From Bacteroidales bacterium (lineage in GTDB: Bacteria > Bacteroidota > Bacteroidia > Bacteroidales > WCHB1-69): 64,000 nt of DNA. The notes under the pieces are model-generated. The model saw only the letters and a list, made by a program, of their open reading frames with translations. It made no database searches and was not told the DNA's origin. Both the position numbers and the translations under genes were made by a program. The stretch covers positions 4,796-68,795 of the forward strand of contig JAFXTS010000021.1 in the NCBI GenBank assembly GCA_017535665.1, read 5' to 3'. This document shows, piece by piece, positions 9,375-32,882 of the stretch (its first letter is position 1; the number at the start of each line of letters is the position of its first letter).

Positions 9375-12173
9375 ATGAGAAAAATTCTATTGATTTTATT
9401 TGCTTTCTGCACTTTAATGGGTGCGGTGAAAGCGCAGGAAGATGCCACCATCTCTCCTGATGAAATCCAGTATTGGATTGGCGAGGGTGAAAACGAAGCC
9501 ATCCTCATCGTGCAATGGTGCGACCCGGAAATCGCCTTCGCATGGGGCTACCGCTTCGATGGCGAGGTTAATGTTCAAACCATGTTGGATGACATTGCTG
9601 CTGAAGACAGCCGATTCACATATGACGGTGATGCCAGTACAGTGAACCAGATTTACTACAATGATGATGACTACAGCTTGGCATTGGTGGGCTGGTACTG
9701 GATGTACAATATGAATGGTTGGATGGCCGGCCTCGGCTACACTTCACAGATGATCACTAACGGTGACGTGGTGAAATGGGGTGATGTAGAATGCGCAACC
9801 GAAGTGGGTGACATGTCTGATTGGGAAAACTTCACCTATATCTGGACTACCGAAGTAACTCCCGTTTCCAACCCGAACGGCACTGAAGTAGTAGATGCTA
9901 CCATCTCCGCCGATGAAATTGAATATTGGGTAGGCGAAGGTGAAAACGAAGTTGTGGTTATTATCAGCTGGTGTGAAGAAACTGAAACTGCTTTGGCATG
10001 GGGTTATCGTTTCAACGGAGAGACCAACCTGTTCGCTGCGTTGACTGACATTGCCGCTGCTGATGACCGTCTGACCGTTGTGGGTTCCGCCCCCAGCGAC
10101 ATTCTTTATGAAGATGACGAATATAGCCTGAATATGACTGGCGACTATCCGATGCACGGAATTAATGGAGCTATCGGACAGACGGGCATGTCGGGACAGG
10201 CCATCGTAGATGGTGATATTGCAAAAATTGGTGGTTACGACTGCGCCATTATTGAAGGCGGCTGGACAGATGGCACCATTTCTTGGACCACTCCCGTGAT
10301 TCCCGCCACTGAACCTGAAGACGAAATGGTAGATGCTACCATCTCCGCTGACGAAATCGAATACTGGATTGGCGAAGGTGAAAACGAAGCCATTCTCATC
10401 GTGCAATGGTGCGATCCCGAAATCGCTTTTGCATGGGGTTACCGCTTTGATGGCGAGGTGAATGTTCAAACCATGTTGGATGATATCACTGCCGAAGACA
10501 GCCGCCTCACTTACGAAGGCGATGCCAGTACCGTGAATCAGATTTATTATAATGATGATGACTACAGCTTGGCCTTGGTGGGATTGTATTGGATGTACAA
10601 TATGAACGGCTGGATGGCCGGTCTTGGCTACACGTCACAGATGATCACTGACGGTGACGTTGTGAAATGGGGCGATGTAGAATGCGCAACCGAAGTGGGT
10701 GACATGTCAGACTGGGAAAACTTTACCTATATTTGGACTACCGAAGTCACCCCCGTTTCCAACCCGAACGCCCCCGAAGAGGTGGTGGATGCTACCATCT
10801 CCGCCGATGAAGTCGAGTACTGGCTGGGTGAAGGTGAGAACCAAGTGGTGGTCGCCATCAGCTGGTGCAGCAACACCCAGGCCGCTCTGGCATGGGGCTA
10901 CCGTTTCCATGGTGATGCCACCGTCTTTGACGCGCTGACCGCTATTGCCGCTGCCGACAGCCGTCTGGCTGTGGTGGGCGCCGCTCCCTCCAACGTCACT
11001 TATCAGGATGGTGAGCTCGACCTTACCATGCAACCCAACCCGAACGCCCAGTGGGGCGATCCCGATTACGATGCTCCCATGCACAGCATCAATGGTTTGA
11101 TGGGACAGAACTATATGGCCGCCGAACCGATTCACGATGGTGATTTTGTGAAGATTGGTGGCAGCGCTTGCGGCATCTTTTCTGATGACTGGAGCAGCAT
11201 TTCATGGACTGCTTCCATCAATCCCGCCACTGCTCCCACTGAAGTGGGTCCGAGCGACGAGACCTTCGACGGCGTGGTTGGCACCGAAGGCTGCCAGGGT
11301 ATCCACTGCCAAGATCCCGCCATCCTCGGCTGGGCTACCACCTGCACCATTGAACGCGGCCGCCAGAACATCACCACTCCCGGCGTTTTCGCCACCTACG
11401 GCACTGAAAACGACGGCGTGGGCGCCGCTACCGAAAGCACGGGCGACGTGGTCAGCTTAGGCGACTACGGTATTGCCGTCCTTACCTTCGACATCCCGAT
11501 TCAGAACGGTGACGGTTACGATTTCGCCGTGTTTGAAAACTCTTTGAACGACTCCTTCCTTGAAATGGCCTTTGTGGAGGTGAGCTCCGACGGTGTGAAC
11601 TACTTCCGTTTCCCCGCTATCTCCAACTCTGACACCACCGTACAGGTGGACAACGGCGGCAGCGTGGATGCCACCCTCATCCACAACCTTGCCGGTAAAT
11701 ATCGCGCTGGCTGGGGTACTCCTTTCGATCTGGAAGAACTCGCCGGCAACGATGATCTCGACATCAACAACATCACCCACATCCGTCTCGTGGACGTGGT
11801 GGGTTGCGTTGCACCGCGCTATGCTACCCGCGACAGCCGCGGCCACATCATCAACGATCCTTATCCGACACCTTTCCACTCCAGCGGCTTCGACCTTGAC
11901 GGCGTTTGCGTGCTCAACGGCTGGAGACCCAATGGCGTTGAAGAGAACACGATGGTGAACCACACTCTTACGGTATATCCCAACCCGTGCCACAGCAACA
12001 TCACCCTCAACACCGAAGCCCATGACGTGGTCATGCTCTTCAACATGCAGGGCGCACTGCTGCAGCGCGTAGTGGCTACCGACAATACGACTACCTTGAA
12101 TATGCAAGACCTGCCCGCCGGCATGTACATCGTGCGCTGCGGCAACCAGTCGGCCAAGGTCGTCAAACAGTAA
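9375..12173 (+). CDS. T9SS-sorted secreted protein with four approx. 145-aa repeat domains (A-B-A'-B'), a C-terminal beta-sandwich-like domain and a type A Por sorting domain
   Basis: 932 aa. Signal peptide MRKILLILFAFCTLMGAVKAQ. The repeat signature DATISADEIEYW.GEGEN....I.WC......A.AWGYRF occurs 4 times. The C-terminal LTVYPNPCHSNITL...LPAGMYIVRCGNQSAKVVKQ is typical of a T9SS CTD. Confidence 0.7.
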   Translation: MRKILLILFAFCTLMGAVKAQEDATISPDEIQYWIGEGENEAILIVQWCDPEIAFAWGYRFDGEVNVQTMLDDIAAEDSRFTYDGDASTVNQIYYNDDDYSLALVGWYWMYNMNGWMAGLGYTSQMITNGDVVKWGDVECATEVGDMSDWENFTYIWTTEVTPVSNPNGTEVVDATISADEIEYWVGEGENEVVVIISWCEETETALAWGYRFNGETNLFAALTDIAAADDRLTVVGSAPSDILYEDDEYSLNMTGDYPMHGINGAIGQTGMSGQAIVDGDIAKIGGYDCAIIEGGWTDGTISWTTPVIPATEPEDEMVDATISADEIEYWIGEGENEAILIVQWCDPEIAFAWGYRFDGEVNVQTMLDDITAEDSRLTYEGDASTVNQIYYNDDDYSLALVGLYWMYNMNGWMAGLGYTSQMITDGDVVKWGDVECATEVGDMSDWENFTYIWTTEVTPVSNPNAPEEVVDATISADEVEYWLGEGENQVVVAISWCSNTQAALAWGYRFHGDATVFDALTAIAAADSRLAVVGAAPSNVTYQDGELDLTMQPNPNAQWGDPDYDAPMHSINGLMGQNYMAAEPIHDGDFVKIGGSACGIFSDDWSSISWTASINPATAPTEVGPSDETFDGVVGTEGCQGIHCQDPAILGWATTCTIERGRQNITTPGVFATYGTENDGVGAATESTGDVVSLGDYGIAVLTFDIPIQNGDGYDFAVFENSLNDSFLEMAFVEVSSDGVNYFRFPAISNSDTTVQVDNGGSVDATLIHNLAGKYRAGWGTPFDLEELAGNDDLDINNITHIRLVDVVGCVAPRYATRDSRGHIINDPYPTPFHSSGFDLDGVCVLNGWRPNGVEENTMVNHTLTVYPNPCHSNITLNTEAHDVVMLFNMQGALLQRVVATDNTTTLNMQDLPAGMYIVRCGNQSAKVVKQ

Positions 12174-14466: not shown

Positions 14467-14612
14467 TTTTCCCCAATAAAAGTGTATTTTTGAGCTTGAT
14501 TGGCCAATAGACAATCCATCTCACCCGCAAAAAATCCCGCTTCACCAAGTTTTGTGTTTTTCCAATTCAAACATCTTGTATCTTTGCATTCTGATTTTGA
14601 ATCCTGTTTCTA

Positions 14613-15431
14613 ATGAAGAAAAAACGTGTCCTTCACATCATTCTAATCGTGGCTGTCATCTCCTTGATTAGCTGGCTGCTTTACTATCTGGTTTGGTTTC
14701 TCTTTGACCCGGATCTGAGAATGGAATTCTACAAAGGCTGGCCGTTCCATCCGCTGGAAATGCTGCTTGACTATGCGGTGTGCTGTTTTGTAACCTTTAC
14801 GGCCACCATCTATTACCTGCGTTCCTACGACCGGGCCGAACGTGAGCGCGACCGATACAAGCTGCTGGCGTTGGAGAACCAAATTAACCCGCATTTCGTG
14901 TTCAACAACTTCAGCACGCTGGCCGAACTGATAGAGGTGGATCCGAAAAAGGCCACTACATACCTGATGAATCTTTCCAACGTCTATCGCTATGCTCTCT
15001 CTCACCTTGAACACGACAAAGTGAGCCTGCAGGACGAACTGACCTACTTGCGACAGTATCTGCAGTTGCTTAGCGAGCGTTTTGGCGATACCATTCGTGT
15101 GGATATTTCTCCAGAAGTGGCTGACGGTCAAGGATGTGTGCCGCCTGCTGTGTTGCAGATGATGGTGGAGAACGCCATCAAGCACAACGAGCACACCGCC
15201 GCACACCCGCTGAACATTGACATCTTTGGCGACGGCCGGAACATTACTGTACGCAACAACAAACGCCTCGTGCCTATGCCCGAATCCACACAAATTGGCA
15301 TACACAACATCGAGGAACGATACCGCCTGCTTACCCGCCAGAAGGTGCGGATTGAAGATGGTTGCGACAGCTATGCGATAACGATACCGGTGATAGTTGA
15401 AAACGGAAAATTGAAAACTGAAAGTTTATGA
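14613..15431 (+). CDS. Sensor histidine kinase, LytS/YehU-type (His_kinase plus HATPase)
   Basis: 272 aa. Two N-terminal TM helices, H-box region QINPHFVFNNFSTL and N-box MVENAIKHN. It overlaps the downstream regulator gene by 4 nt. Confidence 0.85.
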   Translation: MKKKRVLHIILIVAVISLISWLLYYLVWFLFDPDLRMEFYKGWPFHPLEMLLDYAVCCFVTFTATIYYLRSYDRAERERDRYKLLALENQINPHFVFNNFSTLAELIEVDPKKATTYLMNLSNVYRYALSHLEHDKVSLQDELTYLRQYLQLLSERFGDTIRVDISPEVADGQGCVPPAVLQMMVENAIKHNEHTAAHPLNIDIFGDGRNITVRNNKRLVPMPESTQIGIHNIEERYRLLTRQKVRIEDGCDSYAITIPVIVENGKLKTESL

Positions 15432-16177
15432 GAATTTTAATTATAGAAGATGAGCAGAACAATGCCGAACGTTTGGTGAGGTTGGTGAAGGATGTTCGCC
15501 CCGATGCCGAGATTGTGGCTGTGTTGGCAAGCAATGCGGAGGTGGAGGATTTCTTCAGGCAAGCAGACAACACAGCGGATGTGATATTGTCGGACATCCG
15601 GTTGGGCGATGGCTTGAGTTTCGTAGGGTTGAAGTCCGCCCCGCAGTCGCTGCCCGTGATTTTTACCACCGCCTACGATCAATATGCGCTGCAAGCCTTC
15701 AAATACAACGGTCTCGACTATCTGCTGAAACCCATTGATGCCGAGGAGCTTCGGCAAGCATTGGACAAGGTGGTTGTGGAACACACCACCACCACGGAAG
15801 ACATCCGGCAGCTGTTAGCCTCTGTGGGCAGCATCCGTTACCGTGAGCGTTTCCTCATTGCCTTTCGCGACACCTTCCACGTGGTATCCGTAGGCGAGAT
15901 GAACCACGTGGGTATCAGCGACGGCATCGTTCGTCTCTACACCACCGGCGGCAAATCGCACCTGCTGAACATGACACTGGACGAACTGGAGAAGCAACTT
16001 GACCCCGAGCGGTTTATGCGTGTCAACCGGCAGTATATTGTCAGTGCGGCAGCGGTGGAGAAGCTGTCAGCCCATTTTCTCGGCAAGATGCGCGTCCACC
16101 TCAAAGGCTATCCCGACACGGAGGTCATCGTGAGCCGCGAGAAGGTGTCGGCGGTAAAGCGCTGGCTGGACTTTTGA
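15428..16177 (+). CDS. LytTR-family DNA-binding response regulator
   Basis: 249 aa. The receiver domain (MRILIIEDE ... VILSDIRLGDG ... DYLLKP) is followed by a LytTR-like C-terminus (FMRVNRQYIV). Confidence 0.9.
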   Translation: MRILIIEDEQNNAERLVRLVKDVRPDAEIVAVLASNAEVEDFFRQADNTADVILSDIRLGDGLSFVGLKSAPQSLPVIFTTAYDQYALQAFKYNGLDYLLKPIDAEELRQALDKVVVEHTTTTEDIRQLLASVGSIRYRERFLIAFRDTFHVVSVGEMNHVGISDGIVRLYTTGGKSHLLNMTLDELEKQLDPERFMRVNRQYIVSAAAVEKLSAHFLGKMRVHLKGYPDTEVIVSREKVSAVKRWLDF

Positions 16178-16184
16178 AAGTTAA

Positions 16185-16211
16185 TAATTGATAATTGACA
16201 ATTAACAATTA
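16185..16211. promoter_or_regulatory. AT-rich 27-bp palindrome between the response regulator and the efflux adaptor gene (possible operator or weak terminator)
   Basis: The arms taattgataattg and caattaacaatta flank a central a, with one mismatch between arms. It lies 8 nt after the regulator stop. Confidence 0.3.
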
Positions 16212-16343
16212 CAAGTTATAGTGGCTGTTACAGCATTTGTCGTTGGTGGCTATGACGGTTCACCATTGATTTTTCCCGCTTCATTTATTATTACATTTTT
16301 GCTTCGCCAATAAATCCTCACTTTTGCATCCCAATTTATAAGG

Positions 16344-17438
16344 ATGTACAAAATGAAGAGGATGATATGGATATTGTTGCCGATGGTGATGCTTTCGTGT
16401 GCATCGCGGCAGCAGAAAGAGGGCGATGAGCCTAAACACTACGATTTGCTGACTATCACTGCCAGCGACCACGAGCTTACCACTGAATATGCTGCTTCGC
16501 TGAAAGGACAGCAGGATATTCGCATCATTCCTCGTATAGAAGGCTATCTGCAAGGCATTTATGTGAAGGAGGGCGAACAGGTGAAAGAGGGACAGTTGTT
16601 GTTTAAAGTGGATGCGGCGACCTATAGGGCAGCGGTTGAGGCCGCCAACGCCAATGTGCAGCAGATGAGGGCGGCCTTGGAAAAGGCACAATTGGAATAC
16701 GAAGGCAAGCAGAAACTCCGTGCAAAGAATGTCATCTCTAACTATGAACTGGCATCCTCAAAAAGCGACCTCGCTGTAGCAAAAGCCAATCTTGCAGCAG
16801 CTCAAGCCGCACTAACTTCTGCACGCAACGACCTTAGTTATACGGAATTGCGCAGCCCGTCGGACGGGGTTGTCGGAAGAATACGCTATCGCAAGGGTGA
16901 TTTTGTGACTCCCACCATGCAGGATGGCCTCACCATTGTGGCCGACAACCGCCACATCCGCGCTTACTTCTCTATGAGCGAAACCGTTTTGATGAATTAC
17001 CTAAGCGAATACAAGACGATGGAAGCGGCTGTCAATCAGATGCCTGAAGTGAAACTGCTCCCCCCGAACGGTCAATTCTACAGTCAAACGGGTCGTGTGG
17101 AGAGCATCAGCGGGATTGTGGACGAGGCAACGGGGGCGGTCTCCGTGTGCGCCCTCTTCGACAACCGCGACGGCATTCTTCTCAGCGGCGGTACAGGCAA
17201 AATCGTAATGCCTGCTGTTAAGAAAAACGCCATCGTCATACCGCAGGAGGCCACTTACGAGATTCAGGACAAAGTGTATGTGTATAAGGTCGTTGATGGC
17301 AAGACGGTCTCCACCATCGTGCAAGTGGCATCGCATAACAACGGCAAGGAGTACGTGGTCATCAGCGGCCTCCATGAGGGCGATGTGATTGTTGCCAAAG
17401 GCGCGGGGTTTGTGGAGGAAGGAGAAAGAGTGAGGTGA
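16344..17438 (+). CDS. RND efflux periplasmic adaptor (membrane fusion protein)
   Basis: 364 aa. Lipoprotein-like N-terminus (MVMLSCAS), a lipoyl/hairpin architecture (IPRIEGYLQGIYVKEGEQVKEGQLLFKVD ... coiled coil ... ELRSPSDGVVG) and a beta-barrel C-terminus. Confidence 0.9.
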   Translation: MYKMKRMIWILLPMVMLSCASRQQKEGDEPKHYDLLTITASDHELTTEYAASLKGQQDIRIIPRIEGYLQGIYVKEGEQVKEGQLLFKVDAATYRAAVEAANANVQQMRAALEKAQLEYEGKQKLRAKNVISNYELASSKSDLAVAKANLAAAQAALTSARNDLSYTELRSPSDGVVGRIRYRKGDFVTPTMQDGLTIVADNRHIRAYFSMSETVLMNYLSEYKTMEAAVNQMPEVKLLPPNGQFYSQTGRVESISGIVDEATGAVSVCALFDNRDGILLSGGTGKIVMPAVKKNAIVIPQEATYEIQDKVYVYKVVDGKTVSTIVQVASHNNGKEYVVISGLHEGDVIVAKGAGFVEEGERVR

Positions 17439-17469
17439 AAATCAGATTATGTTTGTAGCTAACTATATT

Positions 17470-18750
17470 TTATAGTTTTACTGCCTTTAATTGACCAAAT
17501 TGATTCATGTCCATTTCCATTTGGTAGAACTCAATACCTTTTTCTATCATATTCTCTTGCAAATCGTATGTGATAAGTTTCTGGTCCTTCAGTATTTTTC
17601 TAATAGTATCCTTGTCCGATTGAGCGCATTTCACCCCAAAATATACAGCTTCAATACAATTAGGAATATCTATCTGCTTATGTTTTCCTGTGCCATCAAT
17701 GTCAAAATAAAGATAACGCAACTCGTTTTCATATTCCCAGTTTTTACTTTTCAAAAAGAAAGAATCCTCAACTGATATGGAATCCTTATTTGAATATTTT
17801 GACATGTCATTTTCAGAATATTTAACGTCTTTGAAATATGAAATAATCCTATTGCTGCTTGTTATCATCTTGGTCATTTTAGCATTAAAATGATATTTAA
17901 TGCAAACTCCTTTATGGAAATCTGCATAATGTGCCCACATTAATTCGTTTAAATATTCATCTTTATCACAACCTTGTTTATGTAAATAAATAGGATTTCC
18001 ATCCTCATTGGTTTTCGGTTCACCTTGTTCACTTATTTCTGGTAATAATTTTATTTTTCTAGAGAAGCAAGCAATCTTCAGACTGTCGTTGTATGCTTTG
18101 AGGATTAATTTGTTAATTTCATCATCGTACATGTTTAGTAGAACAAGAATAGGGCAATCAAATGGATCATTAAATTCTGAAGGAGATGAGATGTTTAATT
18201 GTTCGTTTATTAGGGATTTATAGAGAAATTCGTTACATTTTCTAAAACCATATGCTGACAACCCTGCATATGATTTATGATTTGATTGTTCCAAGAGAAA
18301 AAAAAGAGATTTCTTAAAGGCTAACAGCGCATCATCCTCATATCTTGTTCCCAATTTATGCCAACATAAACCAAGATTAAAGTATAAAGCTTCTTTTATT
18401 GATATTTTATAACGACAATCTTTGTCTCTATCATAAGTATCAATAAGTTCCTTCAGGTGGATAACTTCGCTTTCTTTGCATGGAAGTTGTTCTATAGCTG
18501 CAGAGTATTTAATCAGTGCTTGCCCTAATTTTGACGCTCCGTCTTCATTGAATCTGTTAGCCCTTCCTAAATAAGGACACAAACGCAACCATTCTTCGCT
18601 AAAAGACCGTTTTGCTTTTTCTGCATTAGTCTTATTAATCTGCTGATAATTATTTATATACGATTCTATTTCAAACTCGTATTTTCTCAGTTTACATTTT
18701 CTTATTGAATCTAAAATTACTATAATCAAACTTTTCATCCTATATATCAT
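17470..18750 (-). CDS. DUF2971-family protein with an approx. 170-aa helical N-terminal extension
   Basis: 426 aa. DUF2971 signature motifs as I recall them: SEFNDPFDCP, LMWAHYADFHKGVCIKYHF and KSKNWEYENELRYLY. Its ATG overlaps the stop of the upstream gene (ATGA). Very low GC. Confidence 0.7.
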   Translation of the reverse strand: MIYRMKSLIIVILDSIRKCKLRKYEFEIESYINNYQQINKTNAEKAKRSFSEEWLRLCPYLGRANRFNEDGASKLGQALIKYSAAIEQLPCKESEVIHLKELIDTYDRDKDCRYKISIKEALYFNLGLCWHKLGTRYEDDALLAFKKSLFFLLEQSNHKSYAGLSAYGFRKCNEFLYKSLINEQLNISSPSEFNDPFDCPILVLLNMYDDEINKLILKAYNDSLKIACFSRKIKLLPEISEQGEPKTNEDGNPIYLHKQGCDKDEYLNELMWAHYADFHKGVCIKYHFNAKMTKMITSSNRIISYFKDVKYSENDMSKYSNKDSISVEDSFFLKSKNWEYENELRYLYFDIDGTGKHKQIDIPNCIEAVYFGVKCAQSDKDTIRKILKDQKLITYDLQENMIEKGIEFYQMEMDMNQFGQLKAVKL

Positions 18751-19526
18751 TTTGTTTTACAATCCTTCTCCCCTAGAATCTTCTCATTACCATCTTTAAC
18801 GTAAGGCAACATTTTCTCTGCCAACTGAAACATCTGTGTTGAAAACAGAGTTGGAAATCCATTTTCCTCAGAATAGTTGGCTTTGGCATTAGCGATATTT
18901 TGCTCAATCATCAAAATTGCCTTTCGGGGTTTTAATCCGCCTCTGACTTGTGTGTCTGCCCAAGTCTTAAATGCAGAACTTATTTTGTTCTTATCGTCAG
19001 GAATATCAAAACCTATACATTTGTCTGCTTTTTCAGCGTAATACAACCACACTTCAAAACAAGAGTTGCTTATAATTAATTGTATGCCGTTTTCATCGCA
19101 TTCAGATCGCATCTCCGTAAGAAATTGCTCAAAATGGTCAACATCGGTAAGCAACCAAAAACTGTCAGGATTATCCACACTTGCAGATTCCCGATATTCT
19201 TTCACCTTTGCTACCGCAAAGCTTGTTATTAATGGTTTGCCTCCTTTTTCGAAATTTGGTTCAGCAAAGAAATCAACCTTAATATCTGTATATAACGAGG
19301 GGTTTCGTTTGATTAGGTAAAAATAGTTCTTCTCCCTTTCGGTACCGCCAGAAAAAACGATTATGTATGCTTTAGGTTGAAGTGTGGCTTCAGGTTTTAT
19401 ATATGCTGACTGTGGAACAGACAATGCTATGTCATTGTAAGCTATTGTAGTCAATTTATTGTCTGCAACGACTTCCAATGGCTCTTTTTCAGGATTACCC
19501 TTCTGATAATATCTGTCGTCTGCCAT
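18747..19526 (-). CDS. RloB-like (Toprim-like) protein
   Basis: 259 aa. RloB-type motifs: IIVFSGGTEREKNYF (the usual CEGE is degenerate), LLTDVDHF (DxD) and IISNSCFEVWLYYA. Its start codon directly abuts the ATPase stop (TAAATG). Confidence 0.7.
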   Translation of the reverse strand: MADDRYYQKGNPEKEPLEVVADNKLTTIAYNDIALSVPQSAYIKPEATLQPKAYIIVFSGGTEREKNYFYLIKRNPSLYTDIKVDFFAEPNFEKGGKPLITSFAVAKVKEYRESASVDNPDSFWLLTDVDHFEQFLTEMRSECDENGIQLIISNSCFEVWLYYAEKADKCIGFDIPDDKNKISSAFKTWADTQVRGGLKPRKAILMIEQNIANAKANYSEENGFPTLFSTQMFQLAEKMLPYVKDGNEKILGEKDCKTK

Positions 19527-20822
19527 TTATTCTATGATTGAGATTTGTGGCACTCCGCCATATCGACCTTCAAGATACCCTTTCTCTATATTCATGGTGT
19601 TGTGTATCTTATAGTCATTAAACGAATGCATTTTAGAATTGCCATTCTCCTTTTCAACCTTCCACAACTCATCTGGGCGAATTAAATCCTGTTGGTCTTG
19701 GAATAAGGTCAGATGAGTAGTACAGATGAGTTGTCCTTTTGATTCACTATTGAAGAAGTATTTCAGCAGATTATAGATGAGATTAGGATGCATACTATTT
19801 TCAACCTCATCAATAACCACAACTTTTCCTCTACTGGCATTATATAAAGCTGGTATCAGTGTGAGCAAGCGTACGGTTCCATCGGATTGACTGGCAATAT
19901 TCATTTTCTTTTTATAGCCACCAATGCCTAATTGTTCAAATAGAAATTCTTGAACAATTTGTTCTCCATTTTTCATAGTAATGTTGAAGTTGTTTCGGTT
20001 GTTGGAAAAGGACGTTAATCCGGTATGCTCACTTATAGGGTTCCTGAGAAGCATATGTTGTAGTTCTGAGGCGTTTTTCTTATTCGACATCCACTTTTCA
20101 ATAGGTGTTTCTCCCACCTTGAGAGAATCCGTAATATGCAAACGCGAAAGCAAGATGTTGGCATAATCAAGTAATTGCTTGTTATTCGACATCATGTCAA
20201 TCAAAAAAGGTGTTTGAGAGTTGATGGTGATGATATCAAAATCATTAAGAAACCAATCATAGGCAATTTGAATGTGTTTTTCATTAATCACAGGGTACTT
20301 GGTGTTTAAACAGATTATCGAAGAACCATTGTTCTTCTTCAACAAATCTGTTGAAAGCTTGTTGTCGGTAGTTGGAGTCACAACATCACCAACCCTCTCA
20401 AATATCAAAGTGTCATCCTGTTCGCCAAGACCAGACAACAACAGCCGTTCTCTAATGTTATTCTTTTGAGAATGCTGAATTTCCAATTGGTAAATATAAT
20501 AATTACATTTGGTGAAAAATTCAATTTCAATTTTCATTGGTTCATTATTGGTGCGAACCAATTGAAAGAAAAAGTCATTCAAATCAATGATATTCAGAAA
20601 ATTGTCCAATGTCACAAATGACTTCAAGAATTGCAACACCTTTACAAAATTTGATTTTCCCGAACCATTAGCCCCGTATATCAAAGCGTGCTTGAGCAGT
20701 GGGATTTTTTCATTTGTATTGATATGATTGGCAAAAATCTCACGTTTCGGATTCGGAAACATATCGAATGTAGTCTTCTCATAAAAAGACAACATATTCT
20801 GAATGGCGATTCTCAATAACAT
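19527..20822 (-). CDS. ABC/OLD-type AAA ATPase (AAA_15/AAA_21-like; AbiLi/RloA-like)
   Basis: 431 aa. Walker A GANGSGKSN, signature-like SDGTVRLL, Walker B VVVIDEVENSMHP, H-loop LICTTH, and a C-terminal YLEGRYGGVP tail. Confidence 0.8.
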   Translation of the reverse strand: MLLRIAIQNMLSFYEKTTFDMFPNPKREIFANHINTNEKIPLLKHALIYGANGSGKSNFVKVLQFLKSFVTLDNFLNIIDLNDFFFQLVRTNNEPMKIEIEFFTKCNYYIYQLEIQHSQKNNIRERLLLSGLGEQDDTLIFERVGDVVTPTTDNKLSTDLLKKNNGSSIICLNTKYPVINEKHIQIAYDWFLNDFDIITINSQTPFLIDMMSNNKQLLDYANILLSRLHITDSLKVGETPIEKWMSNKKNASELQHMLLRNPISEHTGLTSFSNNRNNFNITMKNGEQIVQEFLFEQLGIGGYKKKMNIASQSDGTVRLLTLIPALYNASRGKVVVIDEVENSMHPNLIYNLLKYFFNSESKGQLICTTHLTLFQDQQDLIRPDELWKVEKENGNSKMHSFNDYKIHNTMNIEKGYLEGRYGGVPQISIIE

Positions 20823-20850
20823 AACAACGGTATTTCATTTATATGGGCAG

Positions 20851-20858
20851 CAAAGATA
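20851..20858 (-). promoter_or_regulatory. -7 box (TATCTTTG) for the ATPase-RloB-DUF2971 operon
   Basis: The reverse complement of caaagata is TATCTTTG. It lies 29 nt upstream of the ATG at 20822. Confidence 0.5.
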
Positions 20859-20878
20859 CAATTTTTTCTTTATATAGC

Positions 20879-20904
20879 GTGAAAACTTCACGTGAAATTT
20901 TCAC
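20879..20904. promoter_or_regulatory. Tandem inverted repeats GTGAA-N3-TTCAC x2 (candidate operator)
   Basis: gtgaaaacttcacgtgaaattttcac lies over the expected -33 region of the cassette promoter. Confidence 0.35.
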
Positions 20905-21057
20905 AAAATACATAACTTTATGACAATCAGTATGTTTTATTGCTATATTATTCACTCTCTTCTTAAAACTTTTGTCAGTACTCAATTCTTCCTCCACTTC
21001 ACCCACCAATATTCCCGCTTCACCCACTTTCCCGCAACGCCATCGGCACAATCCCTA

Positions 21058-21065
21058 TATTTTTG
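21058..21065 (+). promoter_or_regulatory. -7 box (TATTTTTG) immediately upstream of the RND pump gene
   Basis: tatttttg lies 25 nt before the ATG at 21090. Confidence 0.5.
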
Positions 21066-21089
21066 CGCAAAATTTGATAAGGAATTGCT

Positions 21090-24000
21090 ATGAATACCAA
21101 AACCTTCATCCATCGCCCGCTCCTTTCGATGGTCATCAGCGTGTTCATCGTGCTGTTGGGGGTGATTTCGTTGCTGTCGCTGCCGGTGGAGCGCTATCCC
21201 GACATTGCACCGCCGGCCATCTACGTGTGGGCGAGCTATCCGGGCGCAAGTGCCGAAACGGTGCAGAAGAGCGTGGTGATGCCTCTGGAAGAGGCCATCA
21301 ACGGGGTGGAGGGGATGACCTACATGACCTCGTCGGCCAGCAACGGCTCGGCCAGCATCACCATCTACTTCGAGCAGGGTGCCAATGCCGATATGGCCGC
21401 TGTGAACGTGCAGAACCGCGTTATCCAGGCACAAGCGCAGCTGCCCGCCGAGGTGCTGCAGACGGGCGTGGCGACCGAGAAACGGCAACCCGGCCAGCTT
21501 CGCATCATCGCGTTAGAGAGCCCCAACGGCACCTACGACGAAAACTTCCTCAGCAACTATTTCTACAACAACCTGCGTCCCGCCCTGCTGCGCATCAAGG
21601 GCGTGGGCAAGGTGGAGGTATGGGGCTCACAATATGCCCTGCGCATCTGGCTTAAGCCCGACGTGATGGCGCGTCACAAGCTGATGCCGAGCGACATATC
21701 GGCTGTGCTGGCCGAGCAAAACATCGAGGCCTCGGTCGGCTCGCTGGGCAGCAATTCCGACAATGTGTTTCAATATATGTTGCGCTACACGGGACGCAAA
21801 ACTGAGGTGTCGGAGTTCGAGAACCTTGTGATAGCCTCCCTCCCTACCGGCGAGGAATTGCTGCTGAAGGATGTGGCGGATGTGGAGCTGGGACAGTCGG
21901 ATTACGACTACATCAACAGTATCAACGGGCATCCGGGCGTGATGGGCTCGGTGAGCCAGATGGCCGGCTCCAACGCCACCAAAATCAACCTTGAGATCGA
22001 CAAACTGCTGACCGAAACCGAGAAATCGCTGCCCAAGGACGTGAAAATCGTCACCTTCGACAACACCAACGACTTCCTCTTCGCCTCCATCCGCGAGGTG
22101 ATACTGACGCTCGTCATTGCCATTGTGCTGGTGCTGGTTGTGGTGCTCTTCTTTCTGCAGGATTTTCGTGCTACGCTGGTTCCCGCCATGGGCATCCTCG
22201 TCTCACTCATCGGCACTTTCGCGTTTATGAAAGTAGCAGGATTTTCTGTCAACCTGCTGACTCTGTTTGCTTTGGTGCTGGTCATCGGCACCGTGGTCGA
22301 TGACTCCATCGTGGTAGTGGAGGCGGTGAAAGCCAAGATTGACGAGGGGTGCACCTCCGCCCGTAAAGCCTCGGAGGATGCCATGAATGGTCTTTCCGTC
22401 ACGCTGTTCACCACCACGCTGGTCTTTATGGTCATCTTCATCCCCGTGGCGTTTATGGGCGGCACCACCGGCATCTTCTTCAAACAGTTCGGTCTGACGA
22501 TGGCCGTCGCGGTGGGCATTTCGTTGATTAATGCGCTGACATTGTCACCGGCATTGTGCACATTGATGTTGAAACCATCGTCGGTGGAGACGTTGCGTGC
22601 AACGTCTCTACAAAAATCGGGGATATCGTCCCTGCAATCAAGGATTCGTACCGCATACCAAACCACCTTCACCGCCCTGTTAAAACATTACGCCAACATG
22701 GTCCGCTGGTTTCTCCGTCGCAAATGGGTGGCTACTATCGGTATTGTTGTCGCCATTGTGTTGATGGCGGTGTTGTTCAAGGTGGTGCCCACGGGCTTTA
22801 TCCCCAACGAGGATATGGGCACGCTCTTCGTGGACCTCACACCGCCGCCGGGCTATACGGCCAACAAGACTTTCGATATGATGAACCGCACTTGCGACAA
22901 GATCCGCGAGTTGCCAGAGGTTCAAGATGTCGGCGGCGTGGTGGGCGTCGGAGCAGGTGCCAACATCTTCGTCCAGCTGAAACCGTGGAAAGAACGCCGA
23001 GGAAAAGCGCACTCCTCTTCCACCATTATGGAGAAAATAGACGAGATTTTGTCCCAGGAAACGGAGGCGCAGAGCTTCGTCTCGGAACCGGGCATGGTGG
23101 AGGGTTATGGCGGCAACGGCGGCTTTGAGTTCTCGGTGCAGGGGCGCATCGGACAGGATGCCAAGACGCTGCACGCAGTCACCACCCGCTTTACGGAAAA
23201 ACTCAGCGAGCGTCCGGAAATCGGCGAGGTCTATTCGAGCTACGATGTCAACTATCCGCAGTACCGCGTGGATTTGGATGTGGCGAGGTGCAAGAAGATG
23301 GGGGTTGCTCCCTCCACCGTGCTCAACGAGATGGGCGCTTACTTGGGCGGCGACTACATCTCCAATTTCAACAAATACAACAAGGTGTATCAGGTGGATT
23401 TGCAGCTGAAGCCGTCCGACCGCAACCGCCCCGAATCGCTGACGAGCCTCTTCGTGCGTTCCGAAAACGGCGAGATGATGCCCATCAACCAATTCGTCTC
23501 CCTCACCAAGGAGTATATGCCGCAGTCAATCAACAGTTTCAATATGTTCCCCTGCATCGATGTTTCGGGCAGCGTGGCAGAGGGCAGCAGTTCGGGCCGT
23601 GCCATCAAGGCCATCCAGGAGACCGCCGCGAAGGAGTTGCCCGTGGGCTACAGCATTGAGTTTGGCGGCGTCACCCGCGAGGAGAGCCAGACATCTGGCA
23701 GAGTGATTTTCATCTTCCTGATATGCATCGTATTCGCCTATCTCGTAATGGTGGCACTTTACGAAAGCCTCCTTATCCCGCTGGCGGTGATGCTGTCGGT
23801 GCCATTCGGTCTGGCGGGTAGTCTGCTGTTTGCCAAACTGTTTGGCGTGGAAAACAACATCTATATGCAGATCGGAATGGTGATGCTGGTGGGACTGCTG
23901 TCAAAGACAGCCATCTTGCTCACCGAATATGCTTCGCAGGCACGAAAGGAAGGGAGGTCACTTGCCCAGGCGGCGCTCAGCAGCGCCAAAGTGCGATTGC

Positions 24001-24266
24001 GTCCCATCCTGATGACCTCGCTCACCATGATTATCGGTATGCTGCCCCTGATGTTCGCCTCGGGCGTGGGCGCCAACGGCAGCCGAACCATTGGGGTCTG
24101 TGTGGTCGGAGGAATGCTGTTCGGCACGCTCGGCTTGCTGCTCACCGTGCCGGTGTTGTTTGTCGTGTTTCAAAGGCTGCAGGAGCGTGTTAGTCCCGCT
24201 ACCATTCCCCTATCCGCAAAACAAAAAAAACGGAAGTGTGAGAAAATGAATCGTAAATCCAAATAA
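21090..24266 (+). CDS. RND multidrug efflux permease (AcrB/BmeB-like)
   Basis: 1058 aa with 12-TM HAE1 architecture. The N-terminus FIHRPLLSMVISVFIVLLG and the periplasmic porter domains are typical of AcrB-family pumps. Confidence 0.95.
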   Translation: MNTKTFIHRPLLSMVISVFIVLLGVISLLSLPVERYPDIAPPAIYVWASYPGASAETVQKSVVMPLEEAINGVEGMTYMTSSASNGSASITIYFEQGANADMAAVNVQNRVIQAQAQLPAEVLQTGVATEKRQPGQLRIIALESPNGTYDENFLSNYFYNNLRPALLRIKGVGKVEVWGSQYALRIWLKPDVMARHKLMPSDISAVLAEQNIEASVGSLGSNSDNVFQYMLRYTGRKTEVSEFENLVIASLPTGEELLLKDVADVELGQSDYDYINSINGHPGVMGSVSQMAGSNATKINLEIDKLLTETEKSLPKDVKIVTFDNTNDFLFASIREVILTLVIAIVLVLVVVLFFLQDFRATLVPAMGILVSLIGTFAFMKVAGFSVNLLTLFALVLVIGTVVDDSIVVVEAVKAKIDEGCTSARKASEDAMNGLSVTLFTTTLVFMVIFIPVAFMGGTTGIFFKQFGLTMAVAVGISLINALTLSPALCTLMLKPSSVETLRATSLQKSGISSLQSRIRTAYQTTFTALLKHYANMVRWFLRRKWVATIGIVVAIVLMAVLFKVVPTGFIPNEDMGTLFVDLTPPPGYTANKTFDMMNRTCDKIRELPEVQDVGGVVGVGAGANIFVQLKPWKERRGKAHSSSTIMEKIDEILSQETEAQSFVSEPGMVEGYGGNGGFEFSVQGRIGQDAKTLHAVTTRFTEKLSERPEIGEVYSSYDVNYPQYRVDLDVARCKKMGVAPSTVLNEMGAYLGGDYISNFNKYNKVYQVDLQLKPSDRNRPESLTSLFVRSENGEMMPINQFVSLTKEYMPQSINSFNMFPCIDVSGSVAEGSSSGRAIKAIQETAAKELPVGYSIEFGGVTREESQTSGRVIFIFLICIVFAYLVMVALYESLLIPLAVMLSVPFGLAGSLLFAKLFGVENNIYMQIGMVMLVGLLSKTAILLTEYASQARKEGRSLAQAALSSAKVRLRPILMTSLTMIIGMLPLMFASGVGANGSRTIGVCVVGGMLFGTLGLLLTVPVLFVVFQRLQERVSPATIPLSAKQKKRKCEKMNRKSK
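22584..22611. repeat. 28-nt palindromic element copy embedded in frame in the RND pump CDS
   Basis: gtggagacgttgcgtgcaacgtctctac, followed by caaaaa, differs by 2 nt from the intergenic copy at 32804-32831. It is translated as VETLRATSLQKS, starting at codon 499. Confidence 0.8.
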
Positions 24267-24272
24267 AAATCA

Positions 24273-24280
24273 TATTTTTG
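24273..24280 (+). promoter_or_regulatory. -7 box (TATTTTTG) for the R-M cassette
   Basis: tatttttg lies 23 nt upstream of the ATG at 24303. Confidence 0.5.
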
Positions 24281-24302
24281 CAGCCGTTAAAATGAAGAAT
24301 AT

Positions 24303-25169
24303 ATGAAATCTTTTGCAGATTATAAGAAAGATGCGCCCAACTGGATAACTATGGCAAATGGTGAGTTTTATCCAGATATTTTGGAAAGTGCATGTGAATT
24401 ATACAAACCTGTACTTGTTCTGTTCGAACAATTGATTAAGACATCGGAAAGTTCCGAGAGACTGCTCCGGGAGATAATGGATGTTCATCAGCAATGGATG
24501 AGAATTCAACTGTGCCGTGTTTTTCGGAAATATGTTTCGCCACAGACGCCAGTAGAAATGCTAAAAAACAAATCTAAATTGACAATGATATGTGCTAATT
24601 ATGGCAAATATTTCCGTACCATTGACAGGGTTCAATCAGCATTTTCATCACGACCGATGCCTGACGAAGCGTTATGTGCATTGCTTTGGGAGTATAAAGA
24701 CCGTGGCAAAAAAGGATACGACTTGACGGAACGCTTTTTTGAATTGTTCCAATCTGCTTTCCCAAAGTTAAGGATTGAAGGACCCAAAAGAGCAGGTGCT
24801 GATGTCTTAATGAAGTCTGTTTTCCCCGATTATCCCAATCCTACAAGACCCGTTGATTTTGTCATCAAAAATGAAAAGGATGATATCTTGGCGATTGGAC
24901 TTGCAAGATATGATGGCGACCGTGGGGGTGCGCAAGAAGATGACAGAACCGGTGGTTATGCAAATTGCGCGAAAGAAATCCTGCAATATACCAAGGCAAA
25001 AAGGCTTTCTACAAAGGTCATTTTCGTAAACGATGGCCCAGGTTTGCTTTTGGGATCTATGTGGAATGACTACTCCTCGCTAGAAAAGATTGATGCCAAC
25101 AGAATAATCGTCCTAACTCTCCGAATGTTTAACACAAGGCTCACCGCCAAATGGCTTAAGAGCAAATAA
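24303..25169 (+). CDS. Putative type II restriction endonuclease (assigned by context only)
   Basis: 288 aa. I could not place a family motif with confidence. It sits 8 nt upstream of, and is co-oriented with, a DNA methyltransferase, and GC is low relative to the flanks. Confidence 0.4.
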   Translation: MKSFADYKKDAPNWITMANGEFYPDILESACELYKPVLVLFEQLIKTSESSERLLREIMDVHQQWMRIQLCRVFRKYVSPQTPVEMLKNKSKLTMICANYGKYFRTIDRVQSAFSSRPMPDEALCALLWEYKDRGKKGYDLTERFFELFQSAFPKLRIEGPKRAGADVLMKSVFPDYPNPTRPVDFVIKNEKDDILAIGLARYDGDRGGAQEDDRTGGYANCAKEILQYTKAKRLSTKVIFVNDGPGLLLGSMWNDYSSLEKIDANRIIVLTLRMFNTRLTAKWLKSK

Positions 25170-25177
25170 AAAGTATT

Positions 25178-26392
25178 ATGGCAGTAAGCGTAACATCAAC
25201 AACCGGTCGGACAGTGAACCTAAAGTTCGCGCCCCATACTGAAATAAATTTCCAGCAGACGGCATGGAATGAGGGGGATGGCATTAAACGGCTATATCAT
25301 GCCGATAATATTGACGTTCTTAATGCTCTGACAAACGACGAGGAGGTGTGTGGGAAAGTGACACTTATTTATATTGACCCACCATATAACACAGGCGGAG
25401 TGTTTGAGACCAGAGATTTCAAGCACGCGTATGACGATTGTTTTTCAACAGAATCATATCTTGAATTTATGCGTGTTAGGCTTGTACTGATGCACAAACT
25501 TCTCTCCGATGAAGGGTCTATTTATGTCCATCTTGATAGCAATATGGTATTTCACGTCAAAATACTCATGGATGATATTTTTGGCATTCGCAATTTCAAG
25601 GGTATGATTACCAGAAAAAAATGCAAATCCAAAAACTTTACGCGAAAAACCTACGGCAATATTTCAGATTATATACTTTTTTACTCCAAAACAGACTATC
25701 CAGTGTGGAATCGTCCCTTCGAGGAATGGGGCGATGACAAGATACTAAAAGAGTACCCTTATGTCGAGGAAGGAACGGGGCGTCGTTATAAGAAAGTTCC
25801 CATACATGCCCCTGGTACCCGTAATGGCTCTACCGGCACTGCTTGGCGTGGAATGATGCCTCCTGAGGGAAAGCATTGGCAGTTTACACCTGACAAACTT
25901 GACGAAATGGATGCCAATGGGGAGATTTACTGGTCTTCAAACGGTAATCCTCGACGTAAGGTTTATCTTGACCAAAGTGAAGGCTTGCCTGTACAAGACA
26001 TATGGCTGGATTATATTGACACAAATAATCAAAACACACTTATCACAGGTTATCCAACCGAAAAAAATATTGAAATGCTTAAGCGCATCATCGAAACTTC
26101 TTCACGTCCTGGTGATTTGGTGTTGGATTGTTTTGCCGGCTCTGGAACAACACTTGTCGCTGCTGATGAGCTTGGCCGGCAATGGATAGGCGTTGACATT
26201 GGCGATGAAGCAATTGAAACAATAAAAGAACGATTTAAGAACGGAAGTAAGCCCATGGGAGATTATGTCAAAAAAAAGAAATTGTCACCTATGCCGATGA
26301 TGTCTTTGTTTGACAACGTCGTGGAAAATGAATGTCCTACAATAATCACAAGTTTACGGAGAATAACATACGATGTTTTTGTAGAAGTGTAA
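25178..26392 (+). CDS. DNA methyltransferase, beta-class (motif IV before motif I), probably N6-adenine
   Basis: 404 aa. Motif IV is IYIDPPYNTGG near residue 65 and motif I is LVLDCFAGSGTTLVAA near residue 315. Confidence 0.85.
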   Translation: MAVSVTSTTGRTVNLKFAPHTEINFQQTAWNEGDGIKRLYHADNIDVLNALTNDEEVCGKVTLIYIDPPYNTGGVFETRDFKHAYDDCFSTESYLEFMRVRLVLMHKLLSDEGSIYVHLDSNMVFHVKILMDDIFGIRNFKGMITRKKCKSKNFTRKTYGNISDYILFYSKTDYPVWNRPFEEWGDDKILKEYPYVEEGTGRRYKKVPIHAPGTRNGSTGTAWRGMMPPEGKHWQFTPDKLDEMDANGEIYWSSNGNPRRKVYLDQSEGLPVQDIWLDYIDTNNQNTLITGYPTEKNIEMLKRIIETSSRPGDLVLDCFAGSGTTLVAADELGRQWIGVDIGDEAIETIKERFKNGSKPMGDYVKKKKLSPMPMMSLFDNVVENECPTIITSLRRITYDVFVEV

Positions 26393-26618
26393 TATCCGCA
26401 CGACAAATGAACATCCCCATTTAAATCGATCATATTTTCCATCGTTAGGTAGACCAAACAAATCTGGGAACGACTGAAATGATCCTCTACACCCAAGGAC
26501 TTTGGGAAATAGTTGTCGCGGAGTGTAAATGTTCCAATCTGTTTTGAGGGGGGCAACAAGAAGGAGTAAACACAAATTTCAAGAAAAAAACGTACGTGAA
26601 CAATAAACACTATAGACA

Positions 26619-27962
26619 ATGAAGATGCTTCCGATTCTGTTGACAACGCTACTTGCGATCGGCTGCTCTGTGCAGAAGCCGGTGGTGGAGGAAGCCGTCA
26701 GGCCCAATCTTCTTGAACCGGACATCATACTGGTTGACAGTATGTCTATGCGCTCGTGGCAGGAGATTTTTGTGGACGAACCCTTGCAGTCGCTGATTGC
26801 GGAAGCCCTTGACAGCAACGCCGATGTGCGTACCATGCAGCTCAACGTGGAACAGGCCGCCATCCAGATGCGGGTGGCGAAGCTTTCCTATCTGCCGTCG
26901 TTTGCGCTGTCGCCATCGGGAACTGTTTCGAAGGCACAGAGCAGCACCGCCACCTACACTTACGAACTGCCGCTCACGATGAGCTGGGAATTGAATCTCG
27001 GCGGACAAATGGCGGCACAGAAAGCAGCAACGAAATACCAGTGGATGAACGCACAGGAGCAACTCAAATATACACGGCTACAGCTCATTGCTTCCGTTGC
27101 CAACGCTTACTACACGCTCATTATGCTGGATGAGCAGCTGCGGCTTTCGGAACAGAGCGTGCAACTGCAACGGGAAACGCTGGAAACCATCACGGCAATG
27201 AAGGAGGTGGGCATGATGAACGAATTGGCTGTCAATCAAGCCGAAACAGAATTGCAGGTCACGGTTGCTTCGGTGAGTGATCTGCGCCTGCAACGCGAGA
27301 AGACCGAACGGGCACTGAATGTGTTGTTGAGCCGCACGACTCAGAATGTTCAATATTCCACTTACGCGGATGTCAAAGACATCAATATGGATGCGGATGC
27401 GCCTGTCAGTTTGGAGGCACTGGCGATGCGTCCGGATGTGCGTAGCGCGGAATATCAGCTGCGGGCCTCGTTCAGCAACACCAAAGTGGCGCGCTCGCAG
27501 TTCTACCCGTCGCTGAAACTTACCGCCAGCGGCTCGTGGACCAACAACATCGGCGAGATTGTCAATCCTGCCAAACTGTTGCTAAACCTGATTGGCGGAC
27601 TTACACAGCCGTTGTTTCAGATGGGACAGATCAAGGCGAACTTCGAGATTGCTAAGTTGCAGCAGGAGCAGTCGCAAATTGCTTTCGAGCAGGCACTGTT
27701 GCAGGCGGGCAGCGAAGTCGCCAATGCTTTGTCGGAATGCCATGCCGCACAACAAAAACTGCAAGTCCGCGAGGCGCAGGTGGAGGCCAGCCAAAAAGCG
27801 GTGGAGAACGTACGCGAACTGATGCAGCATTCCTCATCCGTCACCTACCTGGAAGTGCTCACCGCCCAGTCGTCGTGGCTCAATGCCCAGTTGCAGCAGA
27901 CTGCCGACTGGTTGGAGTTACAGCAGGGGAGAATCAATCTGTACAAGGCATTATGCCGATAA
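26619..27962 (+). CDS. Efflux outer-membrane factor (TolC/NodT-family lipoprotein)
   Basis: 447 aa. Lipobox LLAIGCS. It has the duplicated OEP helical-repeat architecture typical of RND outer-membrane subunits. Confidence 0.9.
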   Translation: MKMLPILLTTLLAIGCSVQKPVVEEAVRPNLLEPDIILVDSMSMRSWQEIFVDEPLQSLIAEALDSNADVRTMQLNVEQAAIQMRVAKLSYLPSFALSPSGTVSKAQSSTATYTYELPLTMSWELNLGGQMAAQKAATKYQWMNAQEQLKYTRLQLIASVANAYYTLIMLDEQLRLSEQSVQLQRETLETITAMKEVGMMNELAVNQAETELQVTVASVSDLRLQREKTERALNVLLSRTTQNVQYSTYADVKDINMDADAPVSLEALAMRPDVRSAEYQLRASFSNTKVARSQFYPSLKLTASGSWTNNIGEIVNPAKLLLNLIGGLTQPLFQMGQIKANFEIAKLQQEQSQIAFEQALLQAGSEVANALSECHAAQQKLQVREAQVEASQKAVENVRELMQHSSSVTYLEVLTAQSSWLNAQLQQTADWLELQQGRINLYKALCR

Positions 27963-32338: not shown

Positions 32339-32366
32339 GTAGAGACGTGGTGCACCGCGTCTCTAC
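32339..32366. repeat. 28-nt palindromic element (GTAGAGACG-N10-CGTCTCTAC family)
   Basis: gtagagacgtggtgcaccgcgtctctac, followed by aaaa. It lies in the leader of the first DUF5618-like gene. Confidence 0.8.
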
Positions 32367-32384
32367 AAAATTAATCTAAACATC

Positions 32385-32831: not shown

Positions 32832-32882
32832 AAAAACAATACGTACTTTATGGCAAGAAAGAACTAAATTAATCTAAACATC

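Follow-up and report, generated by a model that had tools for sequence, protein, structure and literature searches.

Two junctions of a Bacteroidales RND efflux locus as probable hotspots for defence cassettes carried without mobility genes

In the bmeABC-type operons of Bacteroides, which encode efflux systems of the resistance-nodulation-division (RND) type, the three structural genes are contiguous. Here we consider a stretch of 64,000 nucleotides (the window; contig JAFXTS010000021.1 of assembly GCA_017535665.1, positions 4,796 to 68,795) from an uncultured gut or rumen Bacteroidales bacterium, in which a tripartite RND locus, consisting of genes for a histidine kinase, a LytTR regulator, an adaptor, a pump and an outer-membrane factor (OMF), is interrupted twice. 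The adaptor-pump junction (J1) holds an AbiL gene pair together with a DUF2971 gene, and the pump-OMF junction (J2) holds a BstEII-type restriction-modification (R-M) pair. In our opinion, both junctions of this chromosomal locus are likely to be defence hotspots, the cassettes of which are swapped by homologous recombination without any mobility machinery. This view is based on the anatomy of the locus, on empty alleles in relatives, on alternative cargo at the same junctions, on a duplicated operator and on recombination tracts.

The original prediction, made from the window alone, had described co-oriented adaptor, pump and OMF genes with two inserts between them, and all eight of its open reading frames (ORFs) were confirmed at their positions, with Pfam and PADLOC identities in agreement. 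The gene of the RND adaptor, a membrane-fusion protein of the HlyD/MFP type, lies on the plus strand at 16344-17438 (Pfam HlyD_D23, HlyD_3 and Biotin_lipoyl_2), that of the inner-membrane pump at 21090-24266 on the same strand (ACR_tran, E=2.7e-288, 959 bits, a full-length model match), and that of the OMF, also on the plus strand, at 26619-27962 (OEP, E=1.4e-44, with two OEP repeats and a lipoprotein-type signal). By Pfam all three efflux ORFs are intact and full length, but instead of being contiguous, as is usual in RND operons, they are separated by 3.65 kb and 2.35 kb. Upstream on the plus strand are the histidine kinase gene (14613-15431; His_kinase PF06580, E=1.8e-21), which is the first gene of the locus and the product of which has 91-94% amino acid identity with its counterparts in the related loci L001, L020, L025 and L027, and the response regulator gene (15428-16177; Response_reg and a LytTR DNA-binding domain). 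The GC content is 0.51-0.62 across the efflux genes versus 0.29-0.38 in the first insert and 0.38-0.45 in the second one, which bears out the compositional difference noted in the original prediction.

Relatives were obtained in a scan of one genome per species, giving about 37 loci (numbered with the prefix L) of as yet uncultured Bacteroidales of the rumen and gut, whose pumps share 63-97% identity with that of the window. The uninterrupted alleles that had been expected in close relatives were found. In L001 and L031, which have the same kinase and regulator, the whole locus from the kinase to the OMF is uninterrupted, with adaptor-pump gaps of 25-27 bp and pump-OMF gaps of 69-167 bp between the ends of tblastn alignments. 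In the kind, order and orientation of its three components, the window agrees with these two loci and with the bmeABC-type operons; unlike them, it has both junctions filled and a pump preceded by a promoter/operator segment of its own. J1 is empty in 17 loci (gap 5-117 bp) and J2 also in 17 (gap about 16-167 bp). Otherwise, J1 is occupied in six loci with a visible adaptor (the window included) and has non-efflux genes upstream in six others, and J2 is occupied in three, again with the window included. Because uninterrupted alleles exist in close relatives, the interrupted arrangement is best read as derived and not as ancestral housekeeping.

Two deep classes of adaptor alleles were distinguished when the window gene (16344-17438) was compared with those of L005, L007, L009 and L002: their products have about 90% and about 68% amino acid identity to that of the window, and the adjoining pumps 90-93%. 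Two regulatory classes were also found, class A loci, such as that of the window, having the kinase and LytTR genes upstream and class B loci an AraC gene (L081). It is very unlikely that the split layout, with an autonomous pump promoter, is ancestral in the clade and that the contiguous alleles arose by deletion. The promoter-bearing pump module, in which the motif precedes the ATG by exactly 88 nt, accompanies pumps with identities down to 78% and so must be old, as such a history would require. However, in distant Bacteroidota and other phyla (L029, L038, L049, L057 and L061) every adaptor that could be detected lies directly beside the pump, contiguous alleles occur in both regulatory classes, and the cargo is compositionally foreign and varies by lineage.

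According to blastn comparison with the empty allele of L001, insert 1 extends over 17432-21088 and replaces a 28-bp spacer, window position 17431 corresponding to L001 9971 and window position 21089 to L001 10000. It measures about 3.66 kb, of which the last approximately 95 bp (20995-21089) are the promoter/operator segment and not cargo. The genes form a tight operon of three on the minus strand, opposite to the efflux genes and convergent with the adaptor gene, and the predicted ATPase-RloB-DUF2971 operon was thus recognized by AbiLi, AbiLii and PDC-S31 models. The AbiLi gene, encoding an AAA_21 / AriA-like ATPase, is at 19527-20822 (PADLOC AbiLi, E=1.4e-64); AbiLii, encoding an RloB-like protein, is at 18747-19526 (Pfam RloB, E=9.5e-16; PADLOC AbiLii, E=4.2e-14); and the DUF2971 gene, a candidate defence gene, is at 17470-18750 (Pfam DUF2971; PADLOC PDC-S31, E=4.6e-34). 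As in AbiL gene pairs defined by PADLOC, the two Abi genes adjoin, the AbiLi stop at 19527 abutting the AbiLii start at 19526, and the start of the DUF2971 gene overlaps the RloB stop by 4 bp. By these model matches, the AbiL pair is a candidate for conferring abortive infection.

The DUF2971 gene is missing from the AbiL cassettes of L005, L007 and L025, and its relatives in other metagenomes were never found adjacent to AbiLi or RloB; its joining to AbiL appears to be a separate, lineage-specific acquisition. No function is assigned to PDC-S31 in the source database, where it is a candidate defence gene by model match, and a scan with NCBIfam gave no name for either the RloB or the DUF2971 protein. 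In L107/L108 (2428-7272), a DUF2971 homologue with 41% identity directly follows a gene for 1190 amino acids, and these may form a different two-gene partnership. Upstream of AbiLi, on the minus strand at 20851-20904, there are a TATCTTTG box (20851-20858) and the tandem palindromes GTGAAAACTTCAC GTGAAATTTTCAC (20879-20904). The palindromes are kept upstream of AbiLi in the cassettes of L025, L005 and L007 and are a candidate operator of the AbiL cassette itself.

Insert 2 was delimited by blastn against L001, L005, L009 and L004. It extends from 24173/24186 to 26639/26660, is about 2.45 kb long, replaces 80-115 bp of the empty alleles, and carries genes co-oriented with the efflux genes. Its edges fall inside coding ends, namely within the last approximately 27 codons of the pump and the first 7-14 codons of the OMF, because the C-terminal 24-27 residues of the pump (24186-24266) and the signal peptide of the OMF (26619-26660) are unlike those of all relatives, which align to pump residues 1-1034 only. 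The insertion appears to have rewritten both tails, that is, the pump C-terminus and the OMF signal peptide. The R-M pair proposed in the original prediction is real, since the product of 24303-25169 (plus strand, 288 amino acids) is homologous over its full length to the BstEII endonuclease of known structure (PDB 9ibq, E=7.9e-83, residues 2-286). This ORF had no match in Pfam, PADLOC or NCBIfam, and its homologues carry the name bstEII in source annotations. A type II DNA methyltransferase gene of the N6_N4 class, probably the cognate one, follows 8 bp away at 25178-26392 on the same strand (Pfam N6_N4_Mtase, E=1.4e-49; PADLOC MTase_II, E=5.7e-133), an adjacency typical of type II R-M systems. 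The specificity of the pair would be GGTNACC by homology to BstEII; the window shows no avoidance of this site (17 occurrences versus 11.8 expected), a count that is uninformative on cleavage or methylation. An apparent split methyltransferase in L089 was dismissed as merely a gene-calling difference on identical DNA.

The BstEII-type module, with the restriction gene before the methyltransferase gene, recurs in L090-L094 from other Bacteroidales. In L090 it is located between housekeeping genes, and in L092 and L093 it adjoins primase, DUF4248, HU and resolvase genes, so a mobile origin of the module itself is plausible. At J2 the R-M cassette is present in every contig of the same species and in no other species, and AbiL is common to the window and three other species-level metagenome-assembled genomes. 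The two insertions can thus be regarded as independent, as had been suggested from the window.

The same junctions hold quite different genes in other lineages. At J1, AbiLi and RloB alone were found in L005 and L007; AbiL with a PAD_porph-like gene in place of the DUF2971 gene of the window in L025; a Bpu10I-type endonuclease with a C5 methyltransferase in L020; 8.9 kb including a PDC-S01 (DUF4143) ATPase in L014; a PLD-SNF2 helicase (PbeA/DrmD-like) in L010; and an Eco57I-type methyltransferase with a type IIG-like T5orf172-helicase protein in L003, L012 and L016. L011 has a WYL/WCX regulator gene and a remnant of about 170 bp (about 3350-3460), matching the 3' end of the T5orf172-helicase gene, whose place in L003, L012 and L016 is directly next to the pump; this remnant is best interpreted as the scar of a cargo replacement. 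At J2, two GmrSD-type genes and a PDC-S02 (YhcG) nuclease gene were found in L015, and an Eco57I-type IIG system in L022. The flanks are constant, the content is variable and empty sites exist among relatives, which is the pattern of a hotspot. The cargo is dominated by defence genes (R-M systems of types II and IIG, AbiL, GmrSD, PDC-S01, PDC-S02 and PDC-S31, and PbeA/DrmD-like genes), exceptions being the PAD_porph gene of L025 and a MatE fragment in L014. With unrelated defence systems at the same junctions of relatives, the earlier suggestion that the operon spacers act as landing pads has gained support.

The most direct traces of the process come from sequencing run X19. At the left junction, within a single unitig contig, there are many differences from the window up to 17337 and zero over 17338-17599. 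The cassette itself (17671-20295) has 14 differences in 2,625 bp (about 99.5% identical). On the right side there are zero differences over 20943-21004 and then 23 over 21005-21248, and the flanks outside the cassette are 8-9% divergent. The whole three-gene cassette seems to be placed, nearly identical, in a lineage with flanks diverged by 8-9%, and the crossovers would be located at the 3' end of the adaptor gene and in the pump-proximal control segment. Similarly, 900 bp of AbiLi (19661-20560) are 99-100% identical to L025 in a background of 82-91%. The two adaptor classes next to pumps of nearly constant identity, and the cargo remnant of L011, are taken as further signs of recombination. 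Homologous recombination with variant alleles, one of the mechanisms offered in the original prediction, is supported by these tracts, which end at the cassette edges, and by the lack of mobility genes and insertion scars. Cassettes would be gained, lost and swapped in this way, with the conserved efflux genes serving as homology arms.

Another tract of recombination was noticed at the edge of the locus, where 300 bp at the start of the kinase gene (14521-14820) are 99% identical to L001 against a background of 81-89%.

We consider it rather unlikely that a conventional mobile element delivered each cassette into the AT-rich repeat spacers, that its mobility genes or end repeats have since decayed, and that recombination merely redistributes the cassettes. 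The low GC content of the cargo points to a foreign origin, the unusual tandem repeats of 6-7 bp in the empty spacers could have been a target, and the neighbours of the BstEII module in L092 and L093 are of the kind expected from such delivery. However, Pfam revealed no integrase, transposase or relaxase domain in the window cargo or in about 10 kb on each side, as the original prediction had stated for mobility genes, and no recombinase or transposase domain was found among about 45 cargo proteins scanned from about 12 loci. The insertion boundaries sought by alignment to relatives were mapped as given above. Of the target duplications sought with them, and of terminal inverted repeats, neither insert gave a convincing example. 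The best end repeats are AT-rich, promoter-like boxes of 9-10 nt and not ends of an element (uncorrected p=0.012-0.018, ten tests). Thus, recombinase, target-site duplication and terminal inverted repeats, by which a transposon or integrative element is recognized, are all missing here. In addition, the cassettes are minimal, their genes starting or stopping 8-36 bp from the boundaries, and cargo of unrelated types uses the same boundaries.

How an operon can accept such cargo is suggested by its control regions. The native operon operator is located on the plus strand at 16259-16284, 60 nt upstream of the adaptor gene, and consists of the direct repeats TTCAC-N16-TTCAT. The pump-proximal segment (20995-21089, plus strand) contains the direct repeats CTTCACCCAC-N11-CTTCACCCAC (20998-21023) and a TATTTTTG box (21058-21065). 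LytTR operators have two direct repeats of about 10 bp with a periodicity of 21 bp, and both sites have this geometry, with imperfect direct repeats of about 9-10 bp spaced at about 21 bp. Five matches to the operator pattern were found in the window, of which these are two; the three others are inside ORFs and were taken as chance matches. In class A, the motif TTCAC-N16-TTCAY occurs upstream of the kinase, the adaptor and the separated pump; among relatives, it precedes the adaptor in L001, L020 and L031, the kinase in L001 and the pump in L025. The operator upstream of the L001 adaptor and the pump-upstream copy of the window are identical at 27 of 32 nt (p<0.0005), and a shared operator stretch of 32-40 nt was significant in three comparisons (p<0.0005). 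In class B, another motif, TCCGAAAAYATACAA, precedes the adaptor by 83-154 nt in eight loci and the separated pump by exactly 88 nt in ten, and it is also found upstream of the OMF in L015 and L022.

A segment of about 95 bp with a TAnnTTTG box precedes the pump in every occupied J1 allele, and the pump-proximal segment is common to alleles with different cargo, namely those of the window and L025 (AbiL) and of L020 (Bpu10I R-M); the empty alleles do not have it. Boxes of this type are located in the locus at 21058 (plus), at 24273 (plus) and, for AbiLi, at 20851 (minus). The original prediction had assigned such a box to each downstream efflux gene. This is correct for the pump (21058), and the predicted R-M box is also present (TATTTTTG, 24273-24280, plus strand, 23 nt upstream of the restriction gene), but the OMF has none: the spacer between the methyltransferase and OMF genes (26393-26618, plus strand) contains neither a TAnnTTTG box nor an operator copy. 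A scan for sigma-70 promoters and terminators is not meaningful for Bacteroidota and was not used.

The following scheme is proposed on this basis. The sites would tolerate cargo when the cut-off downstream gene is transcriptionally self-sufficient, and this self-sufficiency would be provided by the segment of about 95 bp, which combines a Bacteroidota -7 box with a copy of the adaptor-upstream operator and precedes the pump or, in L015 and L022, the OMF. The second copy of the control region probably keeps the separated pump expressed, its internal promoter being presumed active and the LytTR regulator being expected to bind the operator copies. It is plausible that the pump requires an internal promoter: the AbiL operon converges on the adaptor gene, so a transcript started at the promoter of the efflux operon could reach the pump only by passing antisense through 3.4 kb. 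For the OMF of the window, which is not preceded by a box, read-through from the co-oriented R-M cassette at J2 is the probable solution. The efflux system would then still be working, and the cassettes would protect the cell against phages.

It was also supposed earlier that expression of the defence genes may be tied to the LytS/LytTR pair; the sequence instead gives a LytTR-type operator copy to the separated pump. A related explanation is functional co-location, according to which the efflux system or its OMF takes part in phage entry or envelope stress and the LytTR regulator controls AbiL and the pump together through a divergent control region. The repeats at 20998-21023 do lie between the divergent starts of AbiLi and the pump, and the adaptor and OMF alleles are unusually diverse with the pump conserved, but we hold this explanation to be unlikely, since the cargo genes belong to many unrelated kinds and differ in orientation and, in class B (AraC-type) loci as well, AbiL is accompanied by a box and palindromes of its own. 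A broader suggestion, rather unlikely and offered tentatively, is that duplication of an operator and promoter is a general route by which spacers within operons become safe harbours for defence genes, and that in the window the LytTR operator could also put AbiL under an envelope-stress two-component system, coupling efflux with phage defence.

The physical reality of the arrangement was also considered. An artefact of metagenome assembly or binning is barely conceivable. It is true that depth over the pump region is excessive, that many alleles co-occur there and that contigs frequently end within the pump gene, but across the junctions the sequence is shared, at 99.9-100% identity, by at least six metagenome assemblies obtained independently in different studies, and contigs of k=31 unitigs from public runs span all four junctions at 45-47x, the same depth as the flanks. 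In run X18, pump-like sequence over 21160-21300 reaches about 420-460x versus about 3x in the flanks; according to our reading, a very abundant organism in that sample shares this pump segment.

Several points weigh against recombinational swapping at two tolerant junctions. Promoter activity and co-regulation are deduced from motifs alone, and the operator lies 7 nt from the -7 box in the adaptor copy but 32 nt from it in the pump copy. J2 cargo is documented in three lineages only, because the ten relatives without a downstream OMF are not large inserts and do not count as such; they represent synteny breaks or a two-gene architecture. A mobile element, lost since then, could have brought about the original insertions, as the primase and resolvase genes beside the BstEII module in L092 and L093 recall. 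Finally, contigs of the same species with other left arms exist (L081, L083, L084, L087 and L095), one of which, L084, has an empty J1; these alternative haplotypes may be assembly chimeras at shared pump sequence.

Two candidate interpretations were abandoned in the course of the analysis. Strain polymorphism was not retained as the reading of the alternative haplotypes, because the samples that yielded them also yielded pump-broken contigs and the switches occur in short stretches of identity. Loci without an OMF within 10 kb were rejected as giant inserts, and housekeeping genes were found there (GNAT, glycosyltransferase, purE and DPP-IV). In L007, L012, L016, L019, L023, L032 and L034, a gene for a GNAT acetyltransferase of 183 amino acids replaces the OMF directly after the pump, with housekeeping genes next. 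The sequence of the locus was absent from three metatranscriptome runs.

In the literature, no paper was found that reports defence genes within RND operons. The usual descriptions of defence hotspots place them on mobile elements or between core genes that are unrelated to each other. The immigration control region of Escherichia coli (hsd-mcr-mrr) is a hypervariable locus of restriction genes, which strains exchange through recombination in its conserved flanks, with no mobility genes involved; unlike the RND hotspots proposed here, it is located between unrelated genes and not within an operon. The cDHS1/2 loci of Pseudomonas aeruginosa, for which transfer via flank homology was proposed (Johnson et al. 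2023, PMC10250203), resemble the RND locus in having conserved chromosomal flanks, variable defence cargo of low GC content and no obvious mobile element, and the proposed transfer is supported in the RND locus by the recombination tracts. The islands of the RND locus comprise one or two systems in 2.4-3.7 kb, unlike those of cDHS1/2 with a median of 26 kb (PMC10250203). Two more differences from cDHS1/2 are that the genes on either side of the RND cargo are neighbours in one operon and encode parts of a single machine, and that a duplicate of the operon operator and promoter precedes the separated downstream efflux gene.

The genes rloA and rloB are said to have been described in type I R-M loci of Campylobacter jejuni by Miller et al. 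in 2005. These R-linked ORFs lie between hsdR and hsdS (PMC2928727), and as the closest specific precedent they also place an ATPase gene and a gene of the RloB family (AbiL-like) in gaps of a multi-gene operon. Unlike in the RND locus, the host operon in C. jejuni is itself a defence system. We know of no promoter duplication or alternative cargo reported for rloA/rloB. As in AbiL of Lactococcus (PADLOC PDLC02335 and PDLC02337), the AAA_21 ATPase gene of the window is followed by an RloB gene; unlike it, the window system is chromosomal, belongs to Bacteroidales and has a third, translationally coupled DUF2971 gene, an unusual partner. The BstEII system (PDB 9ibq) is matched by endonuclease homology over the full length and by the adjoining N6_N4-class methyltransferase.

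What seems new is the occurrence of two defence hotspots within one operon for a single machine, together with an operator and promoter copied before the separated gene. The sequence suggests that a second copy of this kind, placed before the cut-off gene, is the way in which cargo inside an operon is tolerated. The locus offers a concrete case of defence cassettes moving without mobility genes, with crossovers mapped to about 100 bp, and a rule for finding more such sites, which is to search operons for internal operator copies. It also calls for caution in annotation, since a "split" in an efflux operon of Bacteroidales does not necessarily mean that the operon is broken.

Some features of the surroundings may be added. 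The 10-kb flanks consist of housekeeping genes, with Patatin, glutamate dehydrogenase, a protein with a type IX secretion system (T9SS) tail and a TonB-dependent receptor on one side and DUF1573, dehydroquinase, M20 peptidase and guanylate kinase on the other. An exact-protein look-up of the window adaptor returned no record. Short intergenic spacers of this clade are rich in stop codons and built of tandem repeats of 6-7 bp, as at 16178-16225 of the window (TAATAAT TGATAAT TGACAAT) and at the comparable positions 8703-8750 of L001. The empty adaptor-pump spacers (5-65 bp) are made of such repeats as well, for example TAAACCT x3 in L009 and GTTTAGA x3 in L026, as are the empty spacers of L002 and L054, and both proposed hotspots replace spacers of this type. 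The gene of the T9SS-tail protein (932 amino acids) has an internal repeat of 660 bp (9437-10094 versus 10328-10988, 83.5% identical), and tandem DUF5618 paralogues at 32365-32794 and 32863-33293 are 73.8% identical.

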